In this document: piece after piece, positions 3,309 to 60,807 of the stretch
Numbering within the stretch: position 1 is the first letter of the stretch
Layout of the letters: each line of letters begins with the position of its first letter
From: an uncultured virus (IMG/VR IMGVR_UViG_3300017728_001586)
Lineage: Duplodnaviria > Heunggongvirae > Uroviricota > Caudoviricetes
Virus record (IMG/VR): IMGVR_UViG_3300017728_001586
DNA: 64,000 nucleotides
Reading direction: 5' to 3' (one strand)
The notes under the pieces: model-generated
What the model saw: only the letters and a program-made list of their open reading frames with translations
Database searches by the model: none
What the model was told of the DNA's origin: nothing
Made by a program: the position numbers and the translations under genes

Positions 3309-3374
3309 AGATATCTATCAGGTTACCCTTTTTCCATTCGAGTAGTCGATATCTCCTGTATCTGTTTTGTGGCA

Positions 3375-4813: not shown

Positions 4814-4823
4814 AAATCTCTCC

Positions 4824-5981: not shown

Positions 5982-6663
5982 TGTTTACATTAAGATTGAC
6001 ATTTGCATTAGGTGTTGCACACCCTCCGCCAGAAGCTGCACATGTGCCTGATATCTGAGTGATATCAACATCAGCACTGTCTCCTGTAAAATCAAAATTA
6101 AGTGTTTGTGAACCATCTTTTTGCAATGTATTGAAATTAGAACTAGAACCAGTCACATCGAAATTCCATGTGACATCATCTGATTCCCAATCAATATCAA
6201 AAACATTACTACTTCCAATGAGAACTAAATCCGCATTTAATCTCTCTGCACTTGCAACAGCACCTTGGTCGATATCGAATGTATTCGAATCGCCTGTCAT
6301 TGCGAAATTGATGTCTGAATCATCTGAACTACCTGTAGAACCTATGTTCCAGTCAATAGCGTTAGAATCACCAGTCATCGATATAGCGTAGTTCGATGTA
6401 TCGGCAACGAGAGGTCCGAATAACAAGTTCTTGTTACCTATCATATCTATGTTGAAATCCAAAGTCACACCAGTAATGGTCATGTTTGAACCAGAACCAC
6501 TTGAAAAGTCGTTTAGTCCTACTTTGTTACCAAAACCAACTTGGTCAACATATAATTTTAGAGTATCACCAACTTGTGTTATCATAATCTCATTATCATC
6601 AGTTGCAGCTGCGAAAACGAATGGTGTCGACATTAGTAATAAAATACTTAAAATTTTATTCAT
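5929..6663 (-). CDS. Curlin-like beta-solenoid secreted protein
   Basis: Signal peptide; about 20-27 aa repeats of x-M/V-TGDSN-x-F-D-I; acidic. Confidence 0.75.
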   Translation of the reverse strand: MNKILSILLLMSTPFVFAAATDDNEIMITQVGDTLKLYVDQVGFGNKVGLNDFSSGSGSNMTITGVTLDFNIDMIGNKNLLFGPLVADTSNYAISMTGDSNAIDWNIGSTGSSDDSDINFAMTGDSNTFDIDQGAVASAERLNADLVLIGSSNVFDIDWESDDVTWNFDVTGSSSNFNTLQKDGSQTLNFDFTGDSADVDITQISGTCAASGGGCATPNANVNLNVNSDNAIIQITQKDSGSDS

Positions 6664-7621: not shown

Positions 7622-8096
7622 CTGAGTCTTGTCCAAAGTTTCCTGTTCCGATTGGTATCTCAATAACTGTTTCTGTTCCATCGGAATCAACAATTGTCAT
7701 TCGTATAAATTCTGAACCATCTTCGTTAGTCATTACTTCATATGTGACAACATTGCCCTCTAAACTAAATGAACCAAATCTAACTGAACCGTCATTCGAA
7801 AACATAGACTCAACCAATTGTTTTGCCATTTGAGCATAAATTCGTGATTCTAAATTACGAATAAATTTGGCCATGGTTGTATTGTCTTCTGCCCTTTCAG
7901 CTGCCTTTCTAGCAGATTCAAGTGCATCTTCTATTTCTTTTTTTCTTGTAAACTCTTGGTTCTCAACGGTTAGGTAATGTGATGCTGTGCCTATTCCACT
8001 GAAACTAGGGTTTTTAAATTTATGTTTTATATCAGCCTGTACGCTTTCGCTAATACAGAATACTGAAACTAAGAATATGATTTGTAATAATTTCAT
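7608..8096 (-). CDS. csgF: Curli assembly component CsgF
   Basis: Signal peptide then HKFKNPSFSG; ends TVIEIP; adjacent to csgG. Confidence 0.85.
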   Translation of the reverse strand: MKLLQIIFLVSVFCISESVQADIKHKFKNPSFSGIGTASHYLTVENQEFTRKKEIEDALESARKAAERAEDNTTMAKFIRNLESRIYAQMAKQLVESMFSNDGSVRFGSFSLEGNVVTYEVMTNEDGSEFIRMTIVDSDGTETVIEIPIGTGNFGQDSDGTG

Positions 8097-40090: not shown

Positions 40091-40801
40091 CTACTGTATC
40101 AACTTACCAAATCTATCTGTTCTGAACACTAAACCCATGTTTTCTTTATGCCATTCTTCGCCATTCTCTTCAATAAGAGTTTCTCCATCGGGATGTTGAA
40201 TCTCTATATTAAACGATATACTATATCTATCTTTATCTGTCGTGTTTGGTTCAACCATATGCATGGTGCCACTAGGAAATAAAAGTATGTCTCCAGTTTT
40301 TGGTTGCCAACCCCAAGATTCTTCCATTCTAGGTGAAGATAGAGCCATTCCAACATAGTGTTTAGTTGTTTCTATAAACTTAATATCTCCCTCGTCTCCG
40401 TCTGCCCTAATATAACATGCACCAGAATAAGTACAACCATTATGTAAATGTGGTGCATTATATCCACCTGGATAGTTTATGTTTCCCCATGAGTTATGCA
40501 TAACACATTGAGCAGTTCCTTTTTCAAATCCACAATAACCCATAATCTCTTCCGTCACTGTTCTTTTAATTTGTCTCATCAACTTATTGAATATGGGATT
40601 GTTATCGATACCATCGTTTGATTGCCAACCGAGACCTTTATTAGACCTTCTTCTACCTTCACGGTCTCTAGTTCTCATAGCGTCCATTTCATCCTTCAAC
40701 ATTTGAAAATACTCTGGCGTCAATCCTTCCACTTTGTCTTCTGGATTATATAACCATTCTCTAATACAAATTACTGCTGGACTAAATAATTTAATCGCCA
40801 T
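40091..40801 (-). CDS. 2OG-Fe(II) oxygenase (TIGR02466-like)
   Basis: GWQS, WGNIN, PHLH, SGACY, LFPS..H.V.PN, RYSISFN. Confidence 0.88.
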   Translation of the reverse strand: MAIKLFSPAVICIREWLYNPEDKVEGLTPEYFQMLKDEMDAMRTRDREGRRRSNKGLGWQSNDGIDNNPIFNKLMRQIKRTVTEEIMGYCGFEKGTAQCVMHNSWGNINYPGGYNAPHLHNGCTYSGACYIRADGDEGDIKFIETTKHYVGMALSSPRMEESWGWQPKTGDILLFPSGTMHMVEPNTTDKDRYSISFNIEIQHPDGETLIEENGEEWHKENMGLVFRTDRFGKLIQ

Positions 40802-41627
40802 CTATTTCTCCTTTATGAAATGGACACTCTGGTGGAGGTTCCATTTCTTTGAAATTCTTACCTTTTTGTTTCCAATGTCCTTCACTTCTATATGCACCCA
40901 TATTGTTGGGTTTCTCTTTTAATAGTTTATCGTACTTCTCTCTGTTTACTTGGTCCATGCTAGGAAGTTCTTGTACTCTTTCTTCGGTTCTATCTTTGTG
41001 CCATCCAGCAGTGTCTTTTAACTGATAAGTCGATACCCATTCTTCTCTTTTAAAAGGTATAACTTGAACTAGGGGAGTTCCTTTTGGTATAACAAACGAA
41101 TGACTAACTTTAGGATAGAAAATAATTTGTGAATTGTCTTGATTGATATTAAAGTCATCTGTATCTATAACACCTTGCCATGTTGCAAAATGATTGTTTT
41201 GAAATAAAAAGGGGTCTAAATAGAAACAAGAATAACCTTTTGGCGTTATTATATTCCAAGCATTTCTCATTTTAAATGCATCTTTAATTGGACCTTCTTC
41301 CCCCAAATAACTGAATGAGTGTGCAAACTGAGCTGCAGGATGAGAAGGAGATGCTTGAGATTGTGAAACCTCTTTGCCAAATTCTTGAGTATATGTTTTG
41401 CCGTTATCAAAAACAACTTCCATATCTCTATTTGCAAGAATATACCAACCAGATTTTAACCAATCATCCATTGCCGGACAAGCACGAATAGTCTGTATTC
41501 TTTGTCCTCTATCGTGTTGAAAGACTTTCATCTTTTTCCACCAATCAGGACTTAACGATTTAGCAAGAACTGGTTTCCAGTCTCTAAGACTCTCTTCGTT
41601 AAATGTAGTGAAATCTATCGTTGGCAT
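40791..41627 (-). CDS. DUF6065-like protein
   Basis: TIRACP, W-x-I-x-TPKGYS, GVIDTD, IPKGTPLVQVIPFKRE. Confidence 0.65.
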   Translation of the reverse strand: MPTIDFTTFNEESLRDWKPVLAKSLSPDWWKKMKVFQHDRGQRIQTIRACPAMDDWLKSGWYILANRDMEVVFDNGKTYTQEFGKEVSQSQASPSHPAAQFAHSFSYLGEEGPIKDAFKMRNAWNIITPKGYSCFYLDPFLFQNNHFATWQGVIDTDDFNINQDNSQIIFYPKVSHSFVIPKGTPLVQVIPFKREEWVSTYQLKDTAGWHKDRTEERVQELPSMDQVNREKYDKLLKEKPNNMGAYRSEGHWKQKGKNFKEMEPPPECPFHKGEIDGD

Positions 41628-42333
41628 TATATAATTCTTCCTTATCTACTAGTTCTATCTCGTCACCCCTAAGTACGATAGAACATCTATCTGCATATCG
41701 AGCTCGTTCTGTTGGTGCATCTGCACCATGTGGTATTCTTCCATCAAACATTAACAATCTGTTTGGTTTAAACTCTATACTTCCTATAGAATGTTTTTCT
41801 ATGTGTTCTTCTCTTCCATCTAAACCGGCTTGATAAACACCTTTATCATAAAATCTTAAATCTCCACCCCATGCAGGATTCCAGAATTTATTGTAGTAAT
41901 ATAGAAATGATAGGTTCCATTCATCTTGTTCATCACAATCACAATGAGTTGTACCATGTTGACCATGAGTTTGAGAATTGGTTCCCATATACTGAAATCT
42001 TTTCCATTTAAAACCAAAGTCTGTACATATTCTTCTGTTCAACCATCTAGCGTGTTCTACACTTTCGGTTGTTTCTCCATATTCCATTTCTGGATTACCA
42101 TAATCATCTGTTTTAAAGAATGATGCACCCCAAAGTTGATGATGAGGTAAACCTGTGGGATGTTGTGCGTTTACTTGATTTTGTTTAGCCCACCTAGGAC
42201 CTTCAGAAGTTTTACGATGAATCCATCGATGTATAGAAGTCTCTAAGTAATCATCGATTACATAGACTTTATTTCCTAAAGGAAAGTCTTTAATAGTAAA
42301 AGGTTTATCTACCTTGACTATTTCTAGGGACAT
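41599..42333 (-). CDS. 2OG-Fe(II) oxygenase (prolyl-hydroxylase-like)
   Basis: HCD, WNPAWGGDL, KPNRLLMFDGRIPH, R.S. Confidence 0.88.
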   Translation of the reverse strand: MSLEIVKVDKPFTIKDFPLGNKVYVIDDYLETSIHRWIHRKTSEGPRWAKQNQVNAQHPTGLPHHQLWGASFFKTDDYGNPEMEYGETTESVEHARWLNRRICTDFGFKWKRFQYMGTNSQTHGQHGTTHCDCDEQDEWNLSFLYYYNKFWNPAWGGDLRFYDKGVYQAGLDGREEHIEKHSIGSIEFKPNRLLMFDGRIPHGADAPTERARYADRCSIVLRGDEIELVDKEELYNANDRFHYI

Positions 42334-42336
42334 AAA

Positions 42337-42888
42337 CTACTCTATTAATGCTTTTTGTGGAGGTGGGAATCTATTAATATATTCTTCTACATCTGGAAGT
42401 AAATCTTCTCTAGTTGATTTTACATCATTCATAACATTTACATAGATGTTCCACAGTACATCATAGTATTCCAATACTCTTCTTGCATCTGACCTTAAAG
42501 GATGATTTGAACCATCTCTACCTGCAGCCATAACATCTACCAGACTTTCAAATCCATAAGATTGAATTTGTTGGTCTAAGTAATTTCTACCAACATCATT
42601 AATTTGTTGACTGTATTGATTGGATAATGTCACATCGGAAGGTGGAACAGAATTTTCAATGTAGTTTTCGATTGCATCTAACTCAACATCTGTTAATGAA
42701 ATTTTTTCTTGTTCATCAAACTGAACATTGTCTTTCCATTCCATAATCTTGACTTCGATGTCATCATAGATAAGAACATCATACTCAAACCCCAAATTAG
42801 GTTTATCGACATTATCATGTCTCCATTCTAGGCCATTTGGTTTTCTAATAGTGAGATGACCATTCTCACAATAAATTAACATATTCAT
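42337..42888 (-). CDS. Hypothetical protein, resembles tail-fibre accessory/chaperone proteins
   Basis: LD..QSYGFES...W......LP C-terminal pattern. Confidence 0.5.
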   Translation of the reverse strand: MNMLIYCENGHLTIRKPNGLEWRHDNVDKPNLGFEYDVLIYDDIEVKIMEWKDNVQFDEQEKISLTDVELDAIENYIENSVPPSDVTLSNQYSQQINDVGRNYLDQQIQSYGFESLVDVMAAGRDGSNHPLRSDARRVLEYYDVLWNIYVNVMNDVKSTREDLLPDVEEYINRFPPPQKALIE

Positions 42889-42902
42889 AACAACTCCATA
42901 AT

Positions 42903-44450
42903 TTAGTTTTGATGTTTGTTTTTAAATCTTTCATACATATTTAGGTGTTCTATTTCAGAAGTATCCATACCTTCAATCCAAGGACCGCCTCTAGTATAAT
43001 GTATAGCACAAGCACGCCACTTTTCTTCTTGTGTATCATGCCCCTCAGTTATAACATACCATTCTGGTATTTCTGATATCTTATCTGTCCATTCAAATTG
43101 ATGTAGATATTTACCACTTTCAGTATTGATAACTTCTGGTGTAAGTTTTTTACAGTCTTCATGACCATTATTAAATATCATTAATGATGACCAAAGTTTT
43201 TTAGGATAAGATACATTCTTTTCACCGTTAAATTTTGTTTCAGCATAAGTATCAAAATCATACTGAACACATGCAACTGCATCATCTAAATCTAAGTAGT
43301 AGAACATTGGTAAGATACTTTCATTGAATAGTATATCATCATCAATAAAAATACTAAATCCTTCATAGTTTTCTAAGTAAGGAATTAAGAATCTACTATA
43401 TGTGAACTCTGTTGATTGAGCTGCATACTCTCTATTATACTCTGGAATCTTTGATATGTCAAGAAACTTTATCTCAGGAGTCCAATCTCCTAATATATCA
43501 TGTACATCACCACGACCTGCTCCAAATAATATACTACTCTTAAGACATTTAGCACTTAGTTCTGCAATGTCTTTGTGTCTACTATCATATCCGACATAGA
43601 TTGTCAAGGGTTTGCCAGCAGAAAGTTTATTTACTTTTTTATTGAAGTCTGTCACATCTCCTCTGAAGTTCATCTTCAATAAGTCACTATGTATTTCTAA
43701 ATATCCACGAGTGAATGAAAACGACATTGAGTAGTGGGCTGCATTTCTTTCTACAAGTTGCGACTTCATTTCCTCAATCATTTCATCTATGGGTGTTTCT
43801 GGAAGAGGTATAGCATCGTGGTCATCCCATATCCATAAATCTAAGTCTGGGTCATCCATAGTTTCGAAAACACCTGAACGAACAGAACCTGGATGTATAG
43901 ATAACTGATACATTCGTTCATCTCTGGAGTTCATACCTGCTGTAGCTACAGTACCTTGAATTGCATTCCATAGACCTTCTTTTCTGATACTATCGACTAA
44001 CCAATGTGCCTTTGCACCATGATAATATACAGCATTAAGACTACCATCTTGTTGTTCGCTTAACTTAGTACCTGTAAATTCTTCTATCTTTTGATATTCA
44101 TCATTTGAATTTTTAAAATCCATACCTGCAATTCCTGGTTTTGGATTTTCGGGTGGTGCAGTGTATCCTTTAGAAAGAAAGTAATGATATGCCCATGAAT
44201 GAGATTGTAGTTTGTTCCAACCAAGAAACTTTTGTTCCTTGATTAACTTAGTCATATCACCCCATTTGACCTGTTTTAATTTTCCTGTTTTGTTCGCTGT
44301 CACCCATTTTAAAGATTTATATGCTTCTGTTTCTTTATAATCTTTTGATACATCAAAAGAACCCAACTGAACATGTGTGTTCTTATCTGTTGGATCCCAA
44401 TCTTTGAGAAGTTCCTTTGTGTGCTCGAGTGAGTCTGATTTTACGCTCAT
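42903..44450 (-). CDS. Two-domain protein: unknown (ParB/Srx-like) N-terminus + GT-A glycosyltransferase
   Basis: IYVGYDSR, STEFTYSRFLIPYL, DxD motif FIDDDIL, YPKKLWSSLMIFN, LHQFEW, HYTRGGPW. Confidence 0.85.
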   Translation of the reverse strand: MSVKSDSLEHTKELLKDWDPTDKNTHVQLGSFDVSKDYKETEAYKSLKWVTANKTGKLKQVKWGDMTKLIKEQKFLGWNKLQSHSWAYHYFLSKGYTAPPENPKPGIAGMDFKNSNDEYQKIEEFTGTKLSEQQDGSLNAVYYHGAKAHWLVDSIRKEGLWNAIQGTVATAGMNSRDERMYQLSIHPGSVRSGVFETMDDPDLDLWIWDDHDAIPLPETPIDEMIEEMKSQLVERNAAHYSMSFSFTRGYLEIHSDLLKMNFRGDVTDFNKKVNKLSAGKPLTIYVGYDSRHKDIAELSAKCLKSSILFGAGRGDVHDILGDWTPEIKFLDISKIPEYNREYAAQSTEFTYSRFLIPYLENYEGFSIFIDDDILFNESILPMFYYLDLDDAVACVQYDFDTYAETKFNGEKNVSYPKKLWSSLMIFNNGHEDCKKLTPEVINTESGKYLHQFEWTDKISEIPEWYVITEGHDTQEEKWRACAIHYTRGGPWIEGMDTSEIEHLNMYERFKNKHQN

Positions 44451-44487
44451 AATATAGTTCCTTAATTTCTACACTAATATTTAGTGA

Positions 44488-45954
44488 TTAGGAATTAACA
44501 GGTGTTCCTGGCCATGTTTGTGACAATGAACCATCCCAACGGATAACAGGTGTTTGACCTTGTCTAGCATATGTACTAGGTGACCTATGTTGATAAGTCG
44601 TTGGTGTCTGACCTTGTCTAGCATATGTAGAAGGACTTCTATGTTGATAAGTCGTTGGTGTTTGACCTTGTCTAGCATATGTAGAAGGACTCTGATGTTG
44701 ATATGTAAGAGGTGTCTGACTATTTGCAGGATTTCTGTAAGTAAACGGACTTCTATGGTCATATGTTAAAGGAGACCTGTGGTCATATGTCAACGGACTT
44801 CTATGGTCATATGTAAATGGAGTCTGATTATTTCTTATAAACGGATTCTGAGCATTTACAGGATTCTGATAGTTCGCTGTTGTTTGTCTGTTTCTAATAT
44901 TAGGTTCTTGTTGAGCTCTAATATTAGGTTCTTGTTGTGACCTTATGTTTGGTTCTTGAGCATTTCTAATAAACGGATTTTGTGCATTAGCAATATACGG
45001 AGATTGTGCATTTCTAATATTAGGTTCTTGCGTTACCGTTTGACCTGAACGAATATTAGGTTCTTGTTTTGCCCTAATATTAGGTTGTTGAGCATTACTA
45101 GGTGATTGAGCATCTCTAATATTAGGTTCTTGTTGATTCTTAATAGTAGGTTGTTGAGCACTCTGCTGTTTGTTTCTAATATTAGGTTCTTGTTGTGACC
45201 TTATGTTTGGTTCTTGTGCTGACTGTTGCGCTGAACGAATATTAGGTTCTTGTTGTGACCTTATGTTTGGTTCTTGTGCATTTGAAGTGGTTTGTGCGTT
45301 TGCAATATAAGGTGTTTGTCTGTTTCTAATATTAGGTTCTTGTGCATTTGCAGTGTTTTGTCTGTTTGCAATATAAGGTGTTTGTGCATTTCTGATATTA
45401 GGTTCTTGAGCTGCACTAGCCCCTTGTGCATTAGCAATGTAAGGAGTCTGAAAGTTTCTGATATTTGGTTCTTGAGCAGACTGTTGAGAATCTCTTATAT
45501 TAGGTTCTTGTTTGTTCTTAATTGTAGGTTGCTGAGCATTACTAGGTGACTGAGCATCTCTAATATTAGGTTCTTGTTGGTTTCTAATATTAGGTTGTTG
45601 TATGCTTCTAATATTGGGTTGCTGATTGTTCCTTATATTAGGTTCTTGATTATTCGCAATGTATGGACTCTGGAAAGTATAAGGTTGTTGACCAGTATAA
45701 GGAGTCTGACCATTCTTAATAGTAGGTTGTTGATTATTTCTAATATTAGGTTGTTGATTATTCGCAATATAAGGACTCTGGAAAGTATAAGGAGTCTGAC
45801 CAGTATAAGGAGTCTGACCAGATGCAATATATGGCGACTGATATGTAAATGGTTGTTGACCAGTATAAGGTTGCTGGCCATTAGCAATAGACGGAGTTTG
45901 CACATTAGAAGTGCTTGGCGATTGAGCGATGCCAATTAGAGGTTGCTGTGGCAT
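44488..45954 (-). CDS. Repeat protein B1 (QEPNIR-rich; mirror partner of 45995..48097)
   Basis: 488 aa of 4/6/8/10-residue Pro-anchored units; GGGAG RBS. Confidence 0.85.
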   Translation of the reverse strand: MPQQPLIGIAQSPSTSNVQTPSIANGQQPYTGQQPFTYQSPYIASGQTPYTGQTPYTFQSPYIANNQQPNIRNNQQPTIKNGQTPYTGQQPYTFQSPYIANNQEPNIRNNQQPNIRSIQQPNIRNQQEPNIRDAQSPSNAQQPTIKNKQEPNIRDSQQSAQEPNIRNFQTPYIANAQGASAAQEPNIRNAQTPYIANRQNTANAQEPNIRNRQTPYIANAQTTSNAQEPNIRSQQEPNIRSAQQSAQEPNIRSQQEPNIRNKQQSAQQPTIKNQQEPNIRDAQSPSNAQQPNIRAKQEPNIRSGQTVTQEPNIRNAQSPYIANAQNPFIRNAQEPNIRSQQEPNIRAQQEPNIRNRQTTANYQNPVNAQNPFIRNNQTPFTYDHRSPLTYDHRSPLTYDHRSPFTYRNPANSQTPLTYQHQSPSTYARQGQTPTTYQHRSPSTYARQGQTPTTYQHRSPSTYARQGQTPVIRWDGSLSQTWPGTPVNS

Positions 45955-45994
45955 TAGATTTTACTCCCTAATCTTAATTTAATTATCATCTTCA

Positions 45995-48097
45995 TTATTT
46001 TTGCCCAATTGGTAGACCTTGGTTGTTAAAGTTATGTGCTAACATTCCATTAACAAAGAAGTTCGAGTTATCTTCAATATCAGTTAAGTTATAAACTTCC
46101 ATTTCTGAATGTTCTTCTACTGATACTATCTCTAGTCCCATTTCATCTTGTCTATCAAACATTATTCCATCTAACATACTGAATACACTATCTCCAACTG
46201 TAAGTTCATGTGTTTCTATATCTTCCATCCAACTATGTTCTTTGACTGATTTCTCAACATCAAATGCACCCCATTCGCCATTTGGTAGCATCAATGGGTG
46301 AGTATCAGTCATCTGTAGAATTCTACCATCTGAGAATGTTATATCCCATATAGAACTGATTGGTTGAGGATTAATTTGTTGTATTCTCTTAGGTTCAAGT
46401 AATTTAGTACTTTCGTTCCAAGACATGACCCATTGACCAATAACACATGACTCGATAGGTGCATGTGAACCATCGCCTAACCATATCATTGAACCTGGAG
46501 CGAAGCAACCTCCGCCTCCTCCTCCACCACCAAAGGTAAACGGATTTCTGTATCCATAAGATGCAGGAGACTGATTGTTTGCAATCGAAGGCGTTCTATG
46601 TTGATAAGTGAAAGGATTTCTTCCACTAAATGGGTTTCTAGCAGAGTTTGGTTGTCTTGCCTGATAAGTGAACGGTTGTCTTGCACTAAATGGTTGTCTA
46701 GCACTATTCGGTTGTCTTGCCTGATATGTACTAGGTGACCTGTGATTATATGAACTAGGCGACCTATGGTCGTATGTAAATGGTTGTCTTGCACTAAATG
46801 GGTTTCTAGCAGCGTTAGGTTGTCTTGCCTGATATGTACTAGGTGACCTATGTTGATATGTACTAGGCGACCTATGGTCATATGTATATGGTGACCTGTG
46901 ATTATATGTAGTAGGTGACCTATGGTTGTAAGTAAACGGATTACGATATGTAAACGGTGACCTATGGTCATATGTAAATGGCGACCTATGTTGATAAGTA
47001 AACGGACTTCTATAAGGTGACCTATGGTCATATGTACCAGGTTGTCTATTGTTGTAAGTACTAGGATTCTGGTAAATACTTGGCGACTGATGCTGATAAC
47101 TACTAGGTTGTCTGTTCTGATAGGTACTCGGATTCTGGTAAATACTTGGCGACTGATGCTGATAAGTACTAGGTTGTCTGTTCTGATAGGTACTTGGATT
47201 CTGATAGATACTCGGTGACTGATGTTGATAAGTCAACGGACTTCTATGCTGATAAGTGAACGGACTTCTATAAGGCGACCTATGGTCATATGTCAACGGA
47301 CTTCTATGGTCATATGTAAACGGACTTCTATAAGGTGACCTATGGTCATATGTTAAAGGAGACCTGTGATTATAAGTAAACGGATTACGATATGTAAACG
47401 GTGACCTATGGTCATATGTAAATGGTGACCTATGTTGATAGATGAACGGACTTCTATAAGGCGACCTATGGTCATATGTATTAGGTTGTCTATTACTATA
47501 TGTAGAAGGTGACCTATGGTCATATGTAAATGGTGACCTATGTTGATATGTCAACGGACTTCTATGTTGATATGTCAACGGACTTCTATGATTATATGTA
47601 GAAGGATCCTGATATGTTCTAGGGTCTCTATATGTAGAAGGCGACCTATGTTGATATGTGCCAGGTTGTCTAGCATTTCTAATATTAGGTTCTTGTTGTG
47701 ACCTAATATTTGGTTCTTGTTGATTTCTAATATTAGGTTCTTGTGCATTTACTGGATTTTGATAAATCGCAGGTTGTCTTCTATCTCTAATATTAGGTTC
47801 TTGTGCATTAGCAATATAAGGATAAGGATTCTGTTTGTTTCTTATATTAGGTTCTTGTGCATTAGCAATATAAGGATAAGGATTCTGTCTGTTTCTTATA
47901 TTGGGTTCTTGTGCGTTTGCGATATAAGGATAAGGTTGTTGAACACTCTGTTGTCCAGAAGCATTATTCCAACCGGTAGGCGTCTTTACATAAATCTGGT
48001 CTGCAGCTTTCCATGTGCCTGAGTCTGTTTTTACCCATGCACCTCGGGTTGCATTCCAACCGGTTGGTGTTTTTACCTTTTGTGAGCCTGTCGCCAT
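45995..48097 (-). CDS. Repeat protein A1 (YxHRSP-rich) with C-terminal Gly8-Hint domain
   Basis: N-terminal VK-x-x-x-G-W hairpin motifs, long Tyr/His/Arg/Ser/Pro repeat, then CFAPG...TDTHP...NFFVNGMLAHN. Confidence 0.88.
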   Translation of the reverse strand: MATGSQKVKTPTGWNATRGAWVKTDSGTWKAADQIYVKTPTGWNNASGQQSVQQPYPYIANAQEPNIRNRQNPYPYIANAQEPNIRNKQNPYPYIANAQEPNIRDRRQPAIYQNPVNAQEPNIRNQQEPNIRSQQEPNIRNARQPGTYQHRSPSTYRDPRTYQDPSTYNHRSPLTYQHRSPLTYQHRSPFTYDHRSPSTYSNRQPNTYDHRSPYRSPFIYQHRSPFTYDHRSPFTYRNPFTYNHRSPLTYDHRSPYRSPFTYDHRSPLTYDHRSPYRSPFTYQHRSPLTYQHQSPSIYQNPSTYQNRQPSTYQHQSPSIYQNPSTYQNRQPSSYQHQSPSIYQNPSTYNNRQPGTYDHRSPYRSPFTYQHRSPFTYDHRSPFTYRNPFTYNHRSPTTYNHRSPYTYDHRSPSTYQHRSPSTYQARQPNAARNPFSARQPFTYDHRSPSSYNHRSPSTYQARQPNSARQPFSARQPFTYQARQPNSARNPFSGRNPFTYQHRTPSIANNQSPASYGYRNPFTFGGGGGGGGCFAPGSMIWLGDGSHAPIESCVIGQWVMSWNESTKLLEPKRIQQINPQPISSIWDITFSDGRILQMTDTHPLMLPNGEWGAFDVEKSVKEHSWMEDIETHELTVGDSVFSMLDGIMFDRQDEMGLEIVSVEEHSEMEVYNLTDIEDNSNFFVNGMLAHNFNNQGLPIGQK
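46031..46507 (-). other. Hint (intein-like) autoprocessing domain, 159 aa
   Basis: Cys1 (CF), block B TxxH, terminal His-Asn followed by Phe; no endonuclease insert. Confidence 0.85.
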
Positions 48098-48129
48098 ATT
48101 ATATAGTCCTTAAAATACTATTCTATTTA

Positions 48130-50784
48130 TTAAGAGTAAAGAACCCATAAATCGCCAACTGCGCCATCACTTCCGCCTGGTGCTGATGTTGACTGATATA
48201 TGTTTCTCGCTGTGCCACCACTGTTTGTTGCATTTGTAATTGTCAATGCGCCAGTGTTTACTGCACTTGGGGTAATCGTTAAATCACCTGTTGATGCACC
48301 TGTAAATGTTCCTGTTCCGAATGTGACTGCATCAGCACTTTCGTCCCAACCAATAAATACATTGGCATCACTTCCTCTTTCGATAACAAAACCTGAATCG
48401 CCTGAAGCAGAACCACTATTACCTGTCCCTAACTCTATAAGTTGGTCTTCGATAGTTGTATTTGTTGCCGAATTGGTTACTGTTGAACCATTAACTGTTA
48501 AGTCGCCTGTGAGAACTAAGTTTCCAAATTGAACATTACTTGATGTTCCAACTGCCTGTCCAATAGAGATTGTTGCGGTTGCACCTTCTCCAGAACCACT
48601 TACTGAGACACCAGTTCCTTGACTTACACCTGCAATATAATTACCTGTTGTGTCTGTTCCAAGTGCGACTGAGTTAGCAGCGACTGTAGTAGAGATACTA
48701 ACATCACCTAAATTGGTCATTGTAGCAGAACCTGTCACATCGCCTGTCAAGGATATTGTTGGGTCACTAACATTCAAATCAATTGTGCCATCTGCATCTT
48801 GATATGTTGCAGTAATACCACTTTCAGTATTACTTGAGAACATCGCCCCAGCGATATCTTGTACATTCTCTGTTGATAATTGAGTGTTAGTTGTTGTGAC
48901 TGAACCACCCAATGCAACTGATTGACCATCAATTGTTATCGTACTATTAGCAAGTTTTGCATTTGTAATTGAACCTGCAAGTTTGGATTGATTGATTGAC
49001 CCTGCCAACATGGCATTAGTAATGTCGTTATCACCAATAACAAAGTCAAGATTACCATTTGTATCATCGTATGATACTGAGATACCTGTTTCGGTACCAT
49101 CTAACATACCACCAACAATGTCTTCGACTTGTTCTGTTGTTAATTGTGTATTTGTTGTAGTTATATTACCACCAAGTGATACTGCTGTACCATCAATAGT
49201 GATTGAAGAATTAGCAAGTTTTGCGTTTGTAATACCACCTGCAAGTTTGCCTTCATTGATAGACCCTGCCAACATGGCATTTGTGACACCAAGTGCTTTT
49301 ACTTGAACTGCATCTGAATCTAATTCGATTGAACTATCGTCAACCCCTACTGCAAGAACACCACTTGAGAATGAAAGACCATTACCAGCGACTGAAGAAG
49401 ACAATGCGATATCATTTGCGTTTGCAGTAATACCGTCTCCCCCAATAACATTAACTGTCACATCACCAGAAGTTCCCCCACCAGTCATACCAGTTCCAGC
49501 AACTACTGAAGAAATATCACCAGCATCGTTTGTGAAACTAATTACACCAGTTGAACTGTTGTATGATAAGTCACCACCAGCAGATATTAAACCTCTAACA
49601 TGTGATGTTGATACTGCAAGGTCGATTGCACCATCGTTTGCATCGTCATAAGATGCAGTAAGACCTGTATGTGTACCATTGGTTGCAATTTGAGCACCAA
49701 CTGTATCTTGTATATTCTCGTAAGGTACTCTAATCTCTAAACTTCCATTTGCATCGTCATATGTCATAGCGACATTGACACCAGAAGTTAGTAGAGCATC
49801 TACTCTATCGTCTACTCTTTCGTTTGTGAAGTATAGGTTACTTGAACCTTCTGTAATCTCGTCTGTATTATCTTTACCTGCAACTGAAGAGTCTACATAT
49901 GCCTTGATTGATTGTTGCGTTGCAAGATGAGTATTACTATTAGAAGCCATATTGTCTTGGTCTAAGACAGCAGTACCCGAAACTGTTCCATTTAGAATTG
50001 GAGTCGTTATTGTTTTGTTTGTTAAGTTTTGTGCAGTAGTTAAATCTGCTGTTATCGAAGTATCGATTGTCACATCGTTTGCATTTGCGATAAGACCATT
50101 ACCTGCAACAACATTTACAGTGACATCGCCACTTGTTCCGCCACCTGTTAGACCAGTTCCTGAGACTACACTTGTTATGTCTCCAGTTGGAACTGTTGCA
50201 ACTTGAGCGTCAACATATGCTTTAACTGATTGCTGACTTGGAAGTTTAGTAGCACTATTACTAGACATATCATCTTCATCAACTAATGCGTTTGTAATTC
50301 TTGCATCTGCTCTTGTATTTGTGAAGTATAAATTACTTGAACCTTCTGTAATCTCGTCTGTATTGTCTTTTGTTAGAATACTTGCATCTACATATGCTTT
50401 AATTGATTGTTGAGTAGCGGCATGAGTTGCTGAGTTTGAAGACATGTCATCTTCATCTTTGAAGTTGACTGCAATATCGTCTGCATTTACAGTAATACCT
50501 GTACCAGCACCAATGTTTAGTGTTGCATCACCTGAACTTGCAGTACCAGTTAAACCAGCACCAGCGTTCACACCTGTGATGTCACCTTGTTGTCCGTTAA
50601 TTGTTAGTGTGCCAGCAGCGTCATCATATGTTAATGAGATACCTGTTCCAGCAGTTAGTAGAGAATCAACTCTATCGTCAACTGCCTCGTTGACAGCGGC
50701 GCCAGTAATTAAACCAGCAGATGTTATGACCTCAGTAGTTCCTACTGTTAGACCATTTTTGATTATGAAATTTTTACTTGTCAT
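48130..50784 (-). CDS. Modular tail-fibre-like virion protein
   Basis: Repeated modules: DEDDMSSNSAT..QQS.KAYVD x3, TDEITEGSSNLYFT x2, GDIT.V.AG.G..G x3, TNAMLAGSI x2; C-terminal STSAP..G..GDLWV. Confidence 0.8.
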   Translation of the reverse strand: MTSKNFIIKNGLTVGTTEVITSAGLITGAAVNEAVDDRVDSLLTAGTGISLTYDDAAGTLTINGQQGDITGVNAGAGLTGTASSGDATLNIGAGTGITVNADDIAVNFKDEDDMSSNSATHAATQQSIKAYVDASILTKDNTDEITEGSSNLYFTNTRADARITNALVDEDDMSSNSATKLPSQQSVKAYVDAQVATVPTGDITSVVSGTGLTGGGTSGDVTVNVVAGNGLIANANDVTIDTSITADLTTAQNLTNKTITTPILNGTVSGTAVLDQDNMASNSNTHLATQQSIKAYVDSSVAGKDNTDEITEGSSNLYFTNERVDDRVDALLTSGVNVAMTYDDANGSLEIRVPYENIQDTVGAQIATNGTHTGLTASYDDANDGAIDLAVSTSHVRGLISAGGDLSYNSSTGVISFTNDAGDISSVVAGTGMTGGGTSGDVTVNVIGGDGITANANDIALSSSVAGNGLSFSSGVLAVGVDDSSIELDSDAVQVKALGVTNAMLAGSINEGKLAGGITNAKLANSSITIDGTAVSLGGNITTTNTQLTTEQVEDIVGGMLDGTETGISVSYDDTNGNLDFVIGDNDITNAMLAGSINQSKLAGSITNAKLANSTITIDGQSVALGGSVTTTNTQLSTENVQDIAGAMFSSNTESGITATYQDADGTIDLNVSDPTISLTGDVTGSATMTNLGDVSISTTVAANSVALGTDTTGNYIAGVSQGTGVSVSGSGEGATATISIGQAVGTSSNVQFGNLVLTGDLTVNGSTVTNSATNTTIEDQLIELGTGNSGSASGDSGFVIERGSDANVFIGWDESADAVTFGTGTFTGASTGDLTITPSAVNTGALTITNATNSGGTARNIYQSTSAPGGSDGAVGDLWVLYS

Positions 50785-55661: not shown

Positions 55662-56756
55662 CTATTCGTCAAACGGCAAAGCAGGTACCTGATGAATTTT
55701 CTCAACTGTTGAACTATCTTTCTTAACAAAGACTTTAGTTGAAGCTTTTACAACACCATCACTATCTTTTATAAAGACTCCTTTCACTTTTGCAACTGGC
55801 GTTATTGGTCGATTAGAGTTCTCTGTTGCTTGAAATATAAACGGAGACCTGAATCCATATGGTTGTTGTCTGTTTTGTTGAAAACTATAAGACGCCTGAC
55901 CTTGTGCAATATATGGTTGTCGACCAATAGTAGGATTTCTGTAAATAGAAGGACTTCTATATGAGAAAGGATATGTAAATGGTTGCCTTCTAATAACAGG
56001 GTCTTGTCTATTGTGAGTATTAAGATATTGTGCGTTATGTGCTGAAGGTGTTCTCTTATTTCTAATATTAGGTTCTTGTTGACTTCTAATATTAGGTTGT
56101 TGTTTATTTTTAAGCGCTTGTCTAATAGAAGGTGTTTGTGCGCTTCTAATATTAGGTTCTTGTTGACTCGCTGGTGTTCTTGTTATAGAAGGAGTTTGTT
56201 TACTCGCTTGATAAGCAGACTGTTTGTTTCTTATAACAGATTCCTGTTTATTTTTAATAGTAGGTTGTTGTTGATTTCTAATAAAAGGATTCTGCGTATT
56301 CGCTTGTGCATCTGCGGTGTAAGGACTTTGAGCGCTTCTAATATTAGGTTCTTGAGCAGTCTGTTGGGCGCTTCTTATACTAGGCGCCTGTTTGTCTCTA
56401 ATAACAGGTTCTTGTGCGTTTGCAGTATACGGAGTTTGATGAGCTCTTTCAAACGGATTTTGTCTGTTTCTAATATTAGGTTCTTGTTGATTTCTAATAT
56501 TAGGTTGTTGATTACTTTCCTGCTGATTTCTTTCAAACGGATGTTGTTTGTTTCTAATATTAGGTTGTTGATTACTTTCCTGCTGATTTCTTTCAAACGG
56601 ATGTTGTTTGTTTCTAATAACAGGTTGCTGTGCCTGATGCTGTCGATTTCTTTCAAACGGATGTTGTTTGTTTCTAATAACAGGTTGTTGCGCTGGTTGT
56701 TGCACCTGTGTAGCAATAGGATGTTGGTATATGGATGGTTGTTGTCCTACTGGCAT
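55662..56756 (-). CDS. Repeat protein B2 (QxPxIR-rich; mirror partner of 56763..58364)
   Basis: 364 aa; QQPVIRNKQHPFERN units; C-terminal VKGVFIK..KVFVK motif. Confidence 0.85.
   Translation of the reverse strand: MPVGQQPSIYQHPIATQVQQPAQQPVIRNKQHPFERNRQHQAQQPVIRNKQHPFERNQQESNQQPNIRNKQHPFERNQQESNQQPNIRNQQEPNIRNRQNPFERAHQTPYTANAQEPVIRDKQAPSIRSAQQTAQEPNIRSAQSPYTADAQANTQNPFIRNQQQPTIKNKQESVIRNKQSAYQASKQTPSITRTPASQQEPNIRSAQTPSIRQALKNKQQPNIRSQQEPNIRNKRTPSAHNAQYLNTHNRQDPVIRRQPFTYPFSYRSPSIYRNPTIGRQPYIAQGQASYSFQQNRQQPYGFRSPFIFQATENSNRPITPVAKVKGVFIKDSDGVVKASTKVFVKKDSSTVEKIHQVPALPFDE
56490..56690. repeat. 60-bp tandem repeat x3 (coding)
   Basis: Consecutive 60-nt lines nearly identical; boundaries approximate. 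Confidence 0.85.
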
Positions 56757-56762
56757 ATCACA

Positions 56763-58364
56763 TTACTCCTGGTTATTATCATCGTTTTCATCGTCTTCTG
56801 GTTCTTCGTTTTCGTAATACAGAGTCACTTTTAGCGATATTGTATGAGTTCCCATATTAGCATCTGGACTTGTAAATGTAAATGTATTAGTTGTCTCGTA
56901 CTCCTTAACATCTCCACCGCTAGCATTATCACATTTCCACTTGGTAAAAGTACCATTAGTTGTACCAAAACTCCAAGAAGTGCTAGTTATTGCAGTGCCT
57001 GTAGAAATGTTTCCGCTCAGAGTACCCTCATTGAAGGTACCATGAGTAGAGGTACTTCTAGCAACAGAATAATTAGTTCCAGCATCGTCTATTTTGTATA
57101 GAAGAATAGCACTATTTGCATTAATGCTTTGCTGCTGACCATTTTGAGTACCGCCGGTATTTGTTTCTTCCAGATATGCATCAGCATTCTGTCCAGGTGG
57201 TATACCATCAGATGAAGCATAAACATATACATTAACATCATTACTTGATTCAACACAATATAATACAATCCAAGGTTCTAGACCGCTATGGTCCGAAACT
57301 GAAACCTCACAATGAACTTCAGTATATGGAGCAGTCGTAGTACCAATGTTTTGCTGTTGTAATTCACTAAAGATAAACGGTGTTCGTGCATTTCTTGAGT
57401 TTTGTGTATTGACAATTACTGGAGTTGTAAATGGTGACCTATGTTGGTAAATACTCGGCGATTGATGCTGATAAATTGACGGACTTCTAAATGGTGACCT
57501 ATGCTGATAAGTACTTGGCGATTGATGCTGATAAATTGACGGACTTCTAAATGGCGACTGATGCTGATAAGTACTTGGCGATTGATGCTGATAAATTGAC
57601 GGACTTCTAAATGGCGACTGATGCTGATAAATCAACGGACTTCTATGGTCATAAGTGTCTGGACTTCTATGTTGATAGATACTAGGTTCTCTATTATCGT
57701 ATGTAGAAGGTGACCTATGGTCATAGGTAAATGGTGACCTATGTTGATAAGTAAACGGACTTCTATAAGGCGACCTATGGTCATATATTAAAGGTTCTCT
57801 ATTTTGATATGTAGAAGGTGTTCGAGAAGGACTTTGGTGGTTATATGTTGAAGGACTTCTGTGGTCATATGTAAAAGGACTTCTATGTTCATATGTTAAA
57901 GGTTGTCTATTTGTATAGATGCTAGGCGTTCTAGTCTGAGTCGGTGTACGATATATCAAAGGACTTCTATGTTGATATGTAGAAGGTTCTCTATGTTGAT
58001 AATTTAACTGATAAGTAAACGGTGACCTATGTTGATATGTCAACGGACTTCCATGTTGATATGTAGAAGGTGTTTGAATATTGTATATTGAAGGCGCCCT
58101 ACTTGTGTATATAGCAGGCGACCTGTGATTATAGGTTTTTTGTGCGACACCTTGAGCAATTATTGGATTTTGTGCATTACTAGGCGTCTGAACATTTGTA
58201 GGTGTTCTACTTTGATATGTAAATGGTTGTGTTCCTTGAGTAGTAACCTGATAAATTCTTTGTGCGATATTCGGTTGTTGACCGGCTGCAGGTACTCTGG
58301 CTAAAAAGGGTTGCTGAAAAGTTCCACCATTCTTATCATGTTTTATAAAAATATCGTCTGACAT
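56763..58364 (-). CDS. Repeat protein A2 (YxHRSP-rich) with globular C-terminal domain
   Basis: 533 aa; about 300 aa of repeat followed by about 190 aa non-repetitive domain. Confidence 0.85.
   Translation of the reverse strand: MSDDIFIKHDKNGGTFQQPFLARVPAAGQQPNIAQRIYQVTTQGTQPFTYQSRTPTNVQTPSNAQNPIIAQGVAQKTYNHRSPAIYTSRAPSIYNIQTPSTYQHGSPLTYQHRSPFTYQLNYQHREPSTYQHRSPLIYRTPTQTRTPSIYTNRQPLTYEHRSPFTYDHRSPSTYNHQSPSRTPSTYQNREPLIYDHRSPYRSPFTYQHRSPFTYDHRSPSTYDNREPSIYQHRSPDTYDHRSPLIYQHQSPFRSPSIYQHQSPSTYQHQSPFRSPSIYQHQSPSTYQHRSPFRSPSIYQHQSPSIYQHRSPFTTPVIVNTQNSRNARTPFIFSELQQQNIGTTTAPYTEVHCEVSVSDHSGLEPWIVLYCVESSNDVNVYVYASSDGIPPGQNADAYLEETNTGGTQNGQQQSINANSAILLYKIDDAGTNYSVARSTSTHGTFNEGTLSGNISTGTAITSTSWSFGTTNGTFTKWKCDNASGGDVKEYETTNTFTFTSPDANMGTHTISLKVTLYYENEEPEDDENDDNNQE
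57440..57630. repeat. 60-bp tandem repeat x3 (coding)
   Basis: ggacttctaaatgg..gatgctgataa lines repeat with 60-nt period; boundaries approximate. Confidence 0.85.
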
Positions 58365-58374
58365 ATTTTGTTCA

Positions 58375-60807
58375 CTATATTAAAAAGAAAAGATGACCTA
58401 TCTCTTTTCCACTACCACTAGGAAGACCACTAGATAAATCTGAGTCTGTTATCACACTATAATCTAACTCTATGTCGTTACCATCTAGAGTGATACCATT
58501 ACTCACTGAAGCTTCTAATGTTATCTCACCATCTGTAGTTGTATTAGTACCACCGTCTGGATTATCATTGTAGGTGAGTTTTATACCTTTATTTAGTTCA
58601 ACATTTGCAGTACCATTTTGAGCTATTGTTCCATCACCACTTGCATCGAACTTAAATTGTTTAGCGACTCTGTTGTCTGTAAAGAACACAGCAGAAGCGT
58701 CTTCAGTTAAATTACTAGTACTACCAGCTTGGTCACCAGGGTTCCAAGCAGAACCACTCCATATTAGTATTTGACCAGTACTTGCACCACTATTGACATT
58801 TGCTAAATCTTCTAAGTCGATTGATGGTAAGTCTGATAGAGTTAAAGCAGTAAGAGTAGTTGCAATAGATACATTACCCTTTGCAGTCTGAGTCTGGGTA
58901 CCAGTGACTGCACCTGTTAATGTGAAAGTTGAATTTGCAATTGTTAAATCTATTGTACCATCAGCGTCATCGTCATTGTAAGTTGCTGTAAGACCTGTAT
59001 GTGTACCATTGGTTGCAATCTGAGCACCAGTAATGTCTTGTACTTTCTCGGTGAGTGTGACATTTGACCATGAAGAACCAGTTTGAACTAAAATTTGGTC
59101 ATTAGTATTGTTTGCATCTGAAACATCGTATAAGTCATTTAGAGCAAGTTCGGTAGAAGTAATATCTCCTTTAGTCAAAGCTCTAAGAGTAGTTGCAATT
59201 GTCAAATTACCTTTTGCAGTCTGAGTAGCAGTACCTGTGACTCCACCTGTTAATGTGAAAGTTGAATTGTCTACTACTAGATTTGTTTTGCCTGTATCAT
59301 CGTTGTATGTGACTGATAGACCTGTTTCAGTATTACCAGCGAACATTGCACCAGCGATATCTTCAACTCTTTCTCGCATGGGTGTGTTTTCCCATTGGTC
59401 TGTGGTATCATTATACAGTAAAACATGGTCTTCTGCAAGCGCAATAGGATGGTCTACATTTGCAAGATAATCTATATTCTTTAATGCGATTCTAGCGTCT
59501 GCTCTTGCATCTGTATAATATAGATTAGAATTATGTTCTGTTAAGTTTTGTGTTGTGTGGTTTGCAATACTTGAAACTGTACCAGTCAAAGAACCTGCGT
59601 TTGCATTACTGTCGTGGTCAGATGTTGTATCTAGTATTGTGTGAGTACCAGCAAAGTTTTTAATGTTATTAACTACAGAACTACCTGATTTGAATACTGA
59701 GTTAGTATCACCTGTTATATCATCGACACTTGTAATGTCGCCACCAGTGATATTCAATGTACCATCTGTTAGAGTTCCTACTGTTGCAGTTCCTGATACA
59801 TTTGATAAGTTTGAATATACATTTGACCATCTCTTTGATGTTAAACCCAATGAATATGTATTAGTTGTTTCTGGTCTTAGATGAGAGTTTGCATAACCTG
59901 TGAATGTAATTGTATCACTAGCGGCATTACCTAATGTTGTGTTTCCGTCTACTGTAAGGTTTGCATTTAAGGTTGTATTATCAACTACTTGAAGTGTTGA
60001 TTGCATATGCACATCACCATCAATGTCTACAGCATCTAAATGAGATGTACCATTTACATCGATGTCGCCTTCGATATCTAAGAATCCTGAGAATGTTCCG
60101 TTGACTGCGCCTGTTATAGAACCACTGTTGATACTCATTGTAGAATCAGTGATAGTAGGTGCAGTTAGTGTCTTGCCTGTTGTGAGTAAGATATCATCTT
60201 CTGCAAATGTCTTACCTGCAAGTTGTATTGTATATCCAGATTCTAGTAGAGTTGTTGGTGATGAACTATCTCCATTTATAATAACACCGTTTGCATTGGT
60301 GTTATAGATTGTGTTCTCAACTGTTTTCTGGAAGAATGATGCAACTGAGTTTGCAATATTTGTTCCTACAAATGCACCAGTGTATGAGTATACATGAAGT
60401 CTATCGTTAGTAGACATTGCATTTGCTTGACCAGATGCATAAGTACCTGTTAGTGTGATACCCTCATGCGAACCTGTACCAGTAGGATTAGAAATAATGA
60501 AATCTACATCTTCTATCAAATGTCTTTCGTTTTTAAATACTTGAATCTTATCTTTTACAAAAATTAAGTTATTTGCAAACTCATCGTTACCTGTAAATAG
60601 TGTTTGGTTTGTTGATGCAACGAATACGAACTCTTGGAAGAAAAACTGTTTGTCTTCTAAAACATTGACAGCATCAACTAGTGTTCCGTTGTTTCCAGAT
60701 TTTAATCCTTCTCTTAGACCAGAAACTTCACCCACATCATATGCGAGTTCGTTATAGGTAGTTCTAAAGTCTTCAATTGTTGCGAAGTTGTCTACTGTTT
60801 TAGCCAT
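58375..60807 (-). CDS. Modular tail-fibre-like virion protein
   Basis: NLYYTDARAD, VEDIAGAM..NTETG, TFTLTG.VTG x2; C-terminal LPSG..GHLFF. Confidence 0.78.
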   Translation of the reverse strand: MAKTVDNFATIEDFRTTYNELAYDVGEVSGLREGLKSGNNGTLVDAVNVLEDKQFFFQEFVFVASTNQTLFTGNDEFANNLIFVKDKIQVFKNERHLIEDVDFIISNPTGTGSHEGITLTGTYASGQANAMSTNDRLHVYSYTGAFVGTNIANSVASFFQKTVENTIYNTNANGVIINGDSSSPTTLLESGYTIQLAGKTFAEDDILLTTGKTLTAPTITDSTMSINSGSITGAVNGTFSGFLDIEGDIDVNGTSHLDAVDIDGDVHMQSTLQVVDNTTLNANLTVDGNTTLGNAASDTITFTGYANSHLRPETTNTYSLGLTSKRWSNVYSNLSNVSGTATVGTLTDGTLNITGGDITSVDDITGDTNSVFKSGSSVVNNIKNFAGTHTILDTTSDHDSNANAGSLTGTVSSIANHTTQNLTEHNSNLYYTDARADARIALKNIDYLANVDHPIALAEDHVLLYNDTTDQWENTPMRERVEDIAGAMFAGNTETGLSVTYNDDTGKTNLVVDNSTFTLTGGVTGTATQTAKGNLTIATTLRALTKGDITSTELALNDLYDVSDANNTNDQILVQTGSSWSNVTLTEKVQDITGAQIATNGTHTGLTATYNDDDADGTIDLTIANSTFTLTGAVTGTQTQTAKGNVSIATTLTALTLSDLPSIDLEDLANVNSGASTGQILIWSGSAWNPGDQAGSTSNLTEDASAVFFTDNRVAKQFKFDASGDGTIAQNGTANVELNKGIKLTYNDNPDGGTNTTTDGEITLEASVSNGITLDGNDIELDYSVITDSDLSSGLPSGSGKEIGHLFFLI

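Follow-up and report, generated by a model that had tools for sequence, protein, structure and literature searches.

Why would a phage carry a domain of the protein-splicing type close to the end of a fibre chain, and what becomes of it there? The question is raised by gene A1 of the uncultured virus IMGVR_UViG_3300017728_001586 (IMG/VR; Caudoviricetes), analysed here over a stretch of 64,000 nucleotides, henceforth the window. The product of A1 is a repeat-rich chain that ends in a run of eight glycines, a Hint domain and a short tail. The reading favoured here, to which we assign a probability of roughly 0.45, is that this domain resembles type-A bacterial intein-like (BIL) domains, is inserted in a Gly-rich overhang of the A chain and excises itself, its flanks being re-joined in cis onto the tail. 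The gene is laid out as follows.

45995..48097, minus strand: gene A1, 700 residues, with an adaptor of ~46 residues, QEPNIR-type and HRSPxTY-type repeats, Gly8, the Hint domain and an 11-residue tail.
47960..48097, minus strand: N-terminal adaptor of A1, residues 1–46 (MATGSQKVKTPTGWN...), conserved in homologues and with no counterpart in the partner chain B1.
46508..46531, minus strand: Gly523–Gly530 linker; the Gly530–Cys531 bond at its end is predicted to be scissile.
46031..46507, minus strand: Hint domain C531–N689, 159 residues, identified by Pfam, NCBIfam, a structural model, Foldseek and conservation; type-A BIL-like.
46505–46507, 46298–46309 and 46031–46036, minus strand: catalytic sites of the Hint domain, i.e. 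Cys531, the TxxH motif and His688–Asn689.
45998..46030, minus strand: tail F690–K700 (FNNQGLPIGQK), with a non-nucleophilic Phe at +1 and the C-terminal Lys700 at 45998–46000.

The minus-strand translation of 45995–46531 comprises the last 178 codons of A1 and the stop codon, i.e. the Gly run, the Hint domain and the tail. It agrees with the preliminary description of this DNA, made from the letters alone, in which the chain ended in Gly8, a 159-residue Hint domain with TxxH and a terminal HN, a Phe and ten more residues. QEPNIR-type repeats come first in the chain and are followed by a long run of HRSPxTY-type repeats and then by the eight glycines. The Hint domain spans CFAPG...LAHN, with T597-D-T-H600 as TxxH and H688–N689 as the terminal HN. 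All long open reading frames surrounding it lie on the minus strand, and a Hint query matches one place only in the 114-kb IMG/VR record (estimated to be 63% complete).

The C-terminal domain of A1 is a real Hint domain and not a chance resemblance. In Pfam, it matches Intein_splicing (PF14890) with an E-value of 2.1e-7 and 31.3 bits, short of the curated cut-off of 35.8, and Hint (PF01079) with an E-value of 2.4e-4 over A1 residues 529–608, while the NCBIfam model intein_Cterm (TIGR01443) scores 16.0 bits and reaches its cut-off of 15.6. A sequence search of the PDB with the domain finds the NpuDnaB mini-intein (4o1r, E 2e-4). The AlphaFold2 model, made with 29 sequences, has a mean pLDDT (predicted local distance difference test) of 89.5, and when compared with the PDB by Foldseek it has 61 matches at E ≤ 0.001, of which the 46 listed among ranks 1–50 are Hint-fold proteins without exception. 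The top match is BIL2 from the Tetrahymena BUBL1 locus (6y75/6tmm; E 2.8e-10, TM (template modelling) scores 0.71/0.84), followed by the NpuDnaB intein and other mini-inteins, with the Clostridium thermocellum BIL domain (2lwy) at rank 14 (E 2.7e-7) and Hedgehog at ranks 23 and 33. None of the residues C531, T597, H600, H688 and N689 varies among the 14 close homologues compared. The ratio of nonsynonymous to synonymous substitution rates (dN/dS) in the domain is 0.18–0.26 in five pairwise comparisons, the mark of purifying selection, and its G+C of 0.36 equals that of the phage.

To which class of Hint domains does it belong? Across 32 distinct family tails, the +1 residue is F (11), G (11), I, K, L or M (2 each), R (1) or S (1). 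Since 31 of these tails start with a non-nucleophile, the Ser being the one exception, canonical splicing is excluded as a stable trait of the family. A true Hint domain with a +1 residue unfit for canonical splicing is also what the preliminary description had proposed, and the Pfam matches, the fold and F690 bear it out. A canonical class-1 intein was rejected for A1 itself because Phe690 is not the Cys, Ser or Thr required for the branched intermediate. The domain shares with class-1 mini-inteins (Npu/Ssp DnaB; 4o1r, 1mi8) the fold, the conserved blocks and the existence of alleles that lack it and have contiguous flanks (Hint-less A1-type chains; locus L156 as compared to L152). In these mini-inteins, Cys, Ser or Thr stands at +1; the A1 family has Phe, Gly or Met there, which makes a branched ester intermediate impossible. 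The A1 family also differs in that the host protein is hypervariable, with the insertion not at a conserved catalytic site. Nor is the domain a decaying intein.

By the published definition (C-terminal His-Asn, no +1 nucleophile, hypervariable carrier), the sequence features of the A1 domain match those of a type-A BIL domain; the assignment goes by these defining features, as the searched Pfam and NCBIfam collections hold no BIL-specific profile. Type-A BIL domains were studied by Amitai 2003 and Dassa 2004, work summarised in PMC4031507 and PMC7765530; the excerpts of the former used here describe a C-terminal His-Asn without a +1 nucleophile, an N-terminal thioester with Asn cyclisation, and attack by an amine. 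Like these domains (e.g. 2lwy), the A1 Hint has Cys1, TxxH and a C-terminal His-Asn without a nucleophile at +1, is mini-sized (159 residues) and without an endonuclease, and lies in a variable region of a hypervariable, non-conserved protein. Unlike them, it belongs to a fibre chain of a phage virion, where it follows poly-Gly, stops 11 residues before the C-terminus and leaves a tail with a conserved lysine. Hedgehog/Hog proteins (1at0, 6tyy) are similar in their Gly–Cys-Phe junction, in having the Hint domain C-terminal and the N-terminal part as the product, and in passing the thioester to a non-protein or non-+1 nucleophile. A Hedgehog/Hog domain was rejected, since A1 lacks a sterol-recognition region, has only 11 residues beyond Asn689 and ends its Hint domain in an intein-type His-Asn. 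A pretoxin-HINT domain was also rejected, as A1 has no match to PF07591 and no toxin domain after the Hint.

Where on the fibre does the domain sit? The answer comes from the gene downstream of A1.

44488..45954, minus strand: gene B1, 488 residues (MPQQP...), antiparallel partner of A1, with the same two repeat types.

A position-coincidence test of the two chains matches 56 of the 59 prolines of B1 to prolines of A1 when the chains run antiparallel (x+y=524). The best-fitting parallel offset matches 32 of 59, and when the B1 spacings are shuffled 500 times, the number averages 20.2 and never exceeds 29. In the antiparallel register, B1 residue 1 lies opposite G523, Pro2 opposite F522 and the last B1 residue opposite A1 residue 36. 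An ungapped comparison of inter-proline spacings does not tell the two orientations apart (35 vs 30, and up to 35 in shuffles), and some units contain two prolines. The antiparallel fit is better than the parallel one in 28 of 28 related pairs, and in 27 of them the Gly-rich segment starts opposite B residue 1. The length of A minus the Hint follows that of B with r=0.993 (28 distinct pairs; A of 247–700 residues), and the median difference between the two is 46.5, the size of the N-terminal adaptor; L146 (differing by 2) and L152 are the outliers.

Length changes are mirrored as well. Between L012 and L014, A differs by 10 residues at 365–374 and 20 at 435–454, and B by 20 residues at 55–74 and 10 at 133–142. 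Between the window and L012, A differs by 14 residues at 315–328 and 12 at 350–361, and B by 4+8 at 157–179 and 14 at 189–202. Further mirror-compensated pairs of this kind exist, with L152 as an exception: there (A 436 residues, B 242; compared with L148, L159 and L156), an A chain of the short type is combined with a B chain 20 residues longer, A minus the Hint exceeds B by 34 rather than ~50, and B residue 1 maps inside the Hint. L152 is possibly a recent recombinant. The preliminary description had placed the Gly linker of A1 beside the B1 N-terminus in a mirror register, and this geometry is supported by the proline register, the mirrored indels and 27 of 28 pairs.

Such a geometry would permit a covalently closed hairpin, in which the B1 N-terminal amine would attack the Gly530 thioester, and the position of B1 residue 1 opposite G523 fits it, as does the Gly-rich start faced by B in nearly all pairs. 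In every B chain, the initial M is followed by P, A or V, a start that, by the specificity of methionine aminopeptidase, would expose a free amine once the Met is removed. BIL2, moreover, can pass its acyl group to other acceptor proteins (excerpts of PMC8616854). Common Hint-less pairs, however, with the same length rule and Gly-rich overhang, need no weld, and no acceptor signature in the B N-termini co-varies with the Hint; these N-termini are alike in Hint-bearing and Hint-less pairs (MAQGQAIV in L152, MAQGQAIF in L156). A Pro N-terminus is a secondary amine, and the conserved tail lysine also occurs on carriers with no evident B-type partner, which points to a carrier-independent mechanism. 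Ligation of A1 to B1 is the less economical reading, geometrically well placed and with nothing specific to support it, and we regard it as very doubtful.

Is the Hint domain an integral part of the tip? Hint-less A1-type chains end in a Gly run plus 3–11 residues (e.g. GGGGGGGG-FFPQQLK, GGGG-EEP). They extend 10–13 residues (24 in one case) beyond the point facing B residue 1, with overhangs such as GGGGGGFFPQQLK, GGFQFGGGGEEP and PGFGTGFNPLTK. The Hint-less L156 is 83% identical to the Hint-bearing L152 up to the Gly run and diverges there. The Hint is thus an insert, and the Gly-rich overhang that takes it up is also present in chains that lack it: Hint-less alleles share this overhang, and the Hint is extra length unmatched in B. 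Gly occupies the –1 position in every listed family member.

The main rival to resolution in cis is plain hydrolysis, after which Hint and tail would be discarded. The Hint would then be a removable cap, keeping a sticky aromatic tip soluble or unpaired until A and B zip, in the manner of the chaperone domains of tailspikes and fibres. Self-cleaving C-terminal intramolecular chaperone domains of the Peptidase_S74 type, with a serine–lysine dyad in the trimer, are found in some phage tailspikes and fibres. Like them, the A1 domain would be a C-terminal fibre domain that removes itself after assembly; unlike them, it has the Hint fold and an unrelated chemistry, and A1 has no match to the Peptidase_S74 family in Pfam. 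According to excerpts of PMC4031507, cleavage products dominate for type-A BIL domains in vitro, as expected under hydrolysis. A search with the Hint over 1.84 billion representatives gives 2020 matches at E ≤ 0.001, 288 of them at E ≤ 1e-10; in 58 of the best 149 representatives, the last His-Asn is ≤12 residues from the C-terminus. Many of these have a one-residue tail, and tails of this size are common enough to imply that the C-flank can be dispensable. Many near-terminal Hints also follow a flexible Gly run on very different carriers (fibre-like, small globular and Cys-rich proteins). Nevertheless, Hint-less A/B pairs of the same architecture are common, which means that the fibre can form without a cap, and hydrolysis leaves the keeping of His-Asn and of the tail lysine unexplained. 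Cleavage without re-joining is a serious but somewhat unlikely account.

What, then, does the tail do? The preliminary description passed over it, yet it is no meaningless stub. Each of the 32 distinct family tails contains a lysine, as compared to 7.7 expected from the Lys frequency of the domains, and 30 of the 32 have it among the last three residues. The wider representative set has a tail lysine in 33 of 38 distinct tails (10.8 expected). Among the controls, Lys is present in the last three residues of 12 of 61 non-Hint relatives and of 7 of 58 open reading frames of the window. The tails vary from 1 to 16 residues in length and at every position other than the lysine; by this pattern, the A1-family tail is under selection. 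Some tails also resemble the ends of Hint-less chains: FETGFVPLKR is similar to GTGFNPLTK, ...QPGFNEKL to PPGFNPGDLK, and IPMQQKGEEP to GGEEP.

The lysine has a parallel in the best structural match. BIL2 of Tetrahymena thermophila, from the polyubiquitin-like BUBL1 locus, forms an isopeptide bond between a Lys epsilon-amine and a C-terminal carboxyl with no ATP (PMC8616854, section 2.4, among the excerpts used). Like BIL2, the A1 Hint follows a Gly C-terminus, and just as BIL2 resolves its thioester on a lysine, the A1 family keeps a lysine in its C-flank. BIL2 differs in being eukaryotic and flanked by folded ubiquitin-like domains, and its sequence identity to the A1 Hint is ~20%; the C-flank in the A1 family is a peptide of 1–16 residues, on which an isopeptide would be formed by analogy. 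Resolution in cis on the tail is preferred because of the conserved tail lysine and the BIL2 precedent. Excerpts of PMC4031507 and PMC7765530 also report that the flanks of type-A BIL domains are sometimes ligated through amine attack.

We infer every chemical step of the following scheme. In the folded Hint, Cys531 would attack the Gly530 carbonyl (an N–S acyl shift) to form a thioester. Cyclisation of Asn689 would break the Asn689–Phe690 bond, and the Hint would thereby be gone from the fibre tip. The Gly acyl group would then most likely pass in cis to the chain's own 11-residue tail, either to the conserved Lys, whose epsilon-amine would react as a lysine does in Tetrahymena BIL2, or to the freed alpha-amine of Phe690, as proposed for type-A BIL domains. 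The product of this reaction would resemble the Gly run and short tail that end the Hint-less alleles. Departure of the Hint through the Gly530–Cys531 thioester appears probable; re-joining of the A1 flanks in cis is more tentative, its odds falling somewhat short of even.

Several observations weigh against self-excision with re-joining in cis. Foldseek scores cannot separate BIL2 (2.8e-10) from the NpuDnaB intein (7.8e-10), and the catalytic residues would be conserved also in a merely tolerated insertion that must leave. The tails are related by descent, so that 32/32 overstates their independence. Their likeness to Hint-less ends comprises three examples, and the tail of A1 itself (FNNQGLPIGQK) matches loosely. 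Many tails are 1–6 residues long (K, GEKK, MNKR) and not homologous to the longer Hint-less ends; re-creation of a Hint-less end thus cannot be their general purpose. Finally, the tail lysine could have another role, e.g. in promoting Asn cyclisation or in docking the tail.

Does the same place always hold a Hint? The window contains a second pair of chains.

56763..58364, minus strand: gene A2, 533 residues; repeats, then a non-Hint C-terminal domain after residue 335.
~56766–57359, minus strand: C-terminal non-repeat part of A2 (SELQQ...), ~198 residues, with no Pfam match.
55662..56756, minus strand: gene B2, 364 residues, antiparallel to A2.

In pair 2, 31 of 39 prolines coincide in the antiparallel register, as compared to 21 at the best parallel offset, and B2 residue 1 faces A2 residue 335, the boundary between the repeats and the globular part. 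The unrelated globular domain that the preliminary description saw at this position of pair 2 is thus present and starts where B2 begins; its AlphaFold2 model (pLDDT of 42) is too low in quality for use. The adaptor of ~46 residues, with its hairpin-like (V/I)K..G.W...(Y/F)VK motifs, is found at the N-terminus of A1 (47960–48097) and at the C-terminus of B2 (55662–55800), in the latter as KVKGVFIK...KVFVKK...EKIHQ. These two places are the same end of the rod if the chains are antiparallel, which agrees independently with the register.

A survey of tips among homologues, which had been proposed together with the idea of an exchangeable tip, found Hint domains, Hint-less Gly-rich ends, globular tips and, in one case (P0269), a globular tip domain followed by GGG/CF...HNK, i.e. 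a Hint after a globular tip. The idea stands insofar as pair 2 has a globular domain at the same place; it does not hold insofar as the Hint is inserted behind a pre-existing Gly run and can follow a globular tip instead of replacing it. In globular-tip relatives, a Gly run with two or three further residues is a frequent ending, e.g. GGGGPL or even GGGGGCF.

Ends of the last kind form a side observation. The A2-type globular-tip chains P0249, P0250, P0254, P0264, P0217 and P0222 end in GGGGGCF, GGGCF or GGGGGCY followed by a stop, i.e. in a Gly run plus the first two Hint residues, and the B gene starts at that stop (e.g. L086 447–1718, L087 3001–4518). Such ends may have been left behind when a Hint was lost, or may mark a recombination point that the chains share. 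A split or frameshifted Hint behind the stop was rejected, as B starts at the stop and no Hint lies downstream in L086 and L087. A search of viral contigs for relatives with GGGGGCF-stop found none, and a scan for the pattern gave 70 loci, all out-of-frame chance matches.

The globular tips bear on whether the Hint might stay on the virion, either as a non-cleaving knob or as an armed thioester, the acyl group of which would go to a nucleophile on the host surface or on a small molecule. In relatives, the place of the Hint is occupied by globular, presumably receptor-facing domains, and Hedgehog passes its Hint thioester to a small molecule (excerpts of PMC7765530). In P0269, on the other hand, the Hint does not take the place of the tip, all cleavage residues are kept, and the 11 residues after the A1 Hint leave no sterol-recognition-like or adduct-binding region. 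Linear Hint thioesters are, moreover, short-lived. Retention on the virion is highly improbable. Discharge of the Gly thioester in trans at the distal tip, be it onto the B1 N-terminal amine (closed hairpin) or onto a host-surface amine (covalent phage–host bond), also appears unlikely.

In what kind of phage does this fibre occur? The genome is that of a T4-like marine myophage, with gp23, gp20, gp18, gp19, gp15, gp13/14-type neck proteins and a terminase, and it also has a CsgG/CsgF/curlin cluster. Excerpts of PMC7029224 give this cluster as the hallmark of pelagimyophages and describe a hypervariable host-recognition cluster between VrlC and gp14; by that description, A1 sits in the host-recognition cluster. 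Gene content thus suggests assignment to the pelagimyophages. The block at 402–8096 (minus strand) encodes a CHASE2-adenylate/guanylate cyclase, a FecR-like protein, two curlin-repeat proteins, CsgG and CsgF, i.e. the pelagimyophage curli cluster with an added cyclase. P0008 (61008–63998, minus strand), a large structural protein with ~75 residues of nearly pure Pro or Pro-Val (PPPPPPIAPPPPIPPTPPP...PVPVPVPVPV), is probably VrlC-like and would then mark one boundary of the host-recognition cluster.

A long fibre-like protein is encoded ahead of each A/B pair (48130–50784, 884 residues; 58375–60807, 810 residues; both minus strand), and the two proteins end in similar hydrophobic motifs (GDLWVLYS, GHLFFLI). 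Fibre, A and B, in this order, appear to form a module of three genes that is present twice. In related loci, the order is a fibre-like protein, A with the Hint, B, a GT8-like transferase, a 183-residue protein, a 2OG (2-oxoglutarate) oxygenase, a 278-residue protein, a second 2OG oxygenase, gp13 and gp14. Immediately downstream of B1 (40091–44450, minus strand) lie a GT8-like glycosyltransferase (42903–44450) and two 2OG-Fe(II) oxygenases (40091–40801 and 41599–42333), and the transferase/oxygenase order is kept in the five related loci examined (L009, L011–L014). These enzymes may hydroxylate or glycosylate the Pro/Ser/Thr/Tyr-rich A/B repeats rather than host lipopolysaccharide.

How widespread is the arrangement? 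Among GenBank phages, no match was found by megablast of 44400–48200 or by tblastn of the N-terminal 116 residues of A1, and tblastn of the Hint found only Vibrio phage helicase inteins (24–26% identity); PHROGs has no family for A1 or B1. Metagenome proteins of the A1 build have Hint domains 58–74% identical to that of A1, Gly3–8 before CF and tails of 6–12 residues. A viral structure library contains many uncharacterised phage proteins labelled as containing a Hint domain, one of them annotated as a collagen-repeat protein. P0024, P0052, P0067 and others have 3–9 tandem Hints spaced 1–3 residues apart (...VHNK/CF...), and many end in ...VHNK-stop.

Contigs from 20 public runs, belonging to 16 studies, contain a 1.2-kb stretch; 6 of the runs are RNA libraries, and the 14 others are DNA runs among which the source sample may be included. 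The segment 45700–46739 is covered by one contig each in RNA-library run X15 and DNA runs X10 and X7 and by two overlapping pieces in RNA-library run X17 (0–1 differences). No joint that would remove the Hint occurs in the contigs of these four runs; contigs cannot prove transcription. One of the DNA runs has two weak joints between repeats, with sides 24–28 letters long, and these were disregarded.

Is any of this new? The chemistry class, type-A BIL, is already known. What appears undescribed is that a Hint is placed at the tip of a phage fibre made of two antiparallel chains, that it is joined to poly-Gly and lies close to the C-terminus, that its tail has a conserved lysine, and that natural Hint-less alleles exist. 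Our search of the literature on BIL and Hint domains in phages and tail fibres found no such domain on a phage fibre; publications that pair Hint domains with tail fibres concern, in the excerpts used, true inteins or their absence. The excerpts of PMC7029224 describe no Hint or BIL domain on a phage fibre, and the word intein occurs zero times in that paper.

What would the finding mean? The A1 family is a large BIL-like family at a defined place in abundant marine phages, namely the tip of a two-chain fibre within the host-recognition cluster. BIL domains have been known for two decades, and to our knowledge few of them have a concrete biological setting. Here, natural Hint-less alleles serve as built-in controls, and the conserved tail lysine points to a specific chemistry, isopeptide formation or peptide re-ligation. 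Should the thioester be discharged in trans after all, it would represent a natural enzyme-free protein ligation in virion assembly or adsorption. If self-excision with re-joining in cis is true, such modules may be a source of small, poly-Gly-tolerant self-cleaving or self-ligating units for protein engineering, and self-excision of a Hint domain would join the known routes of phage fibre maturation.

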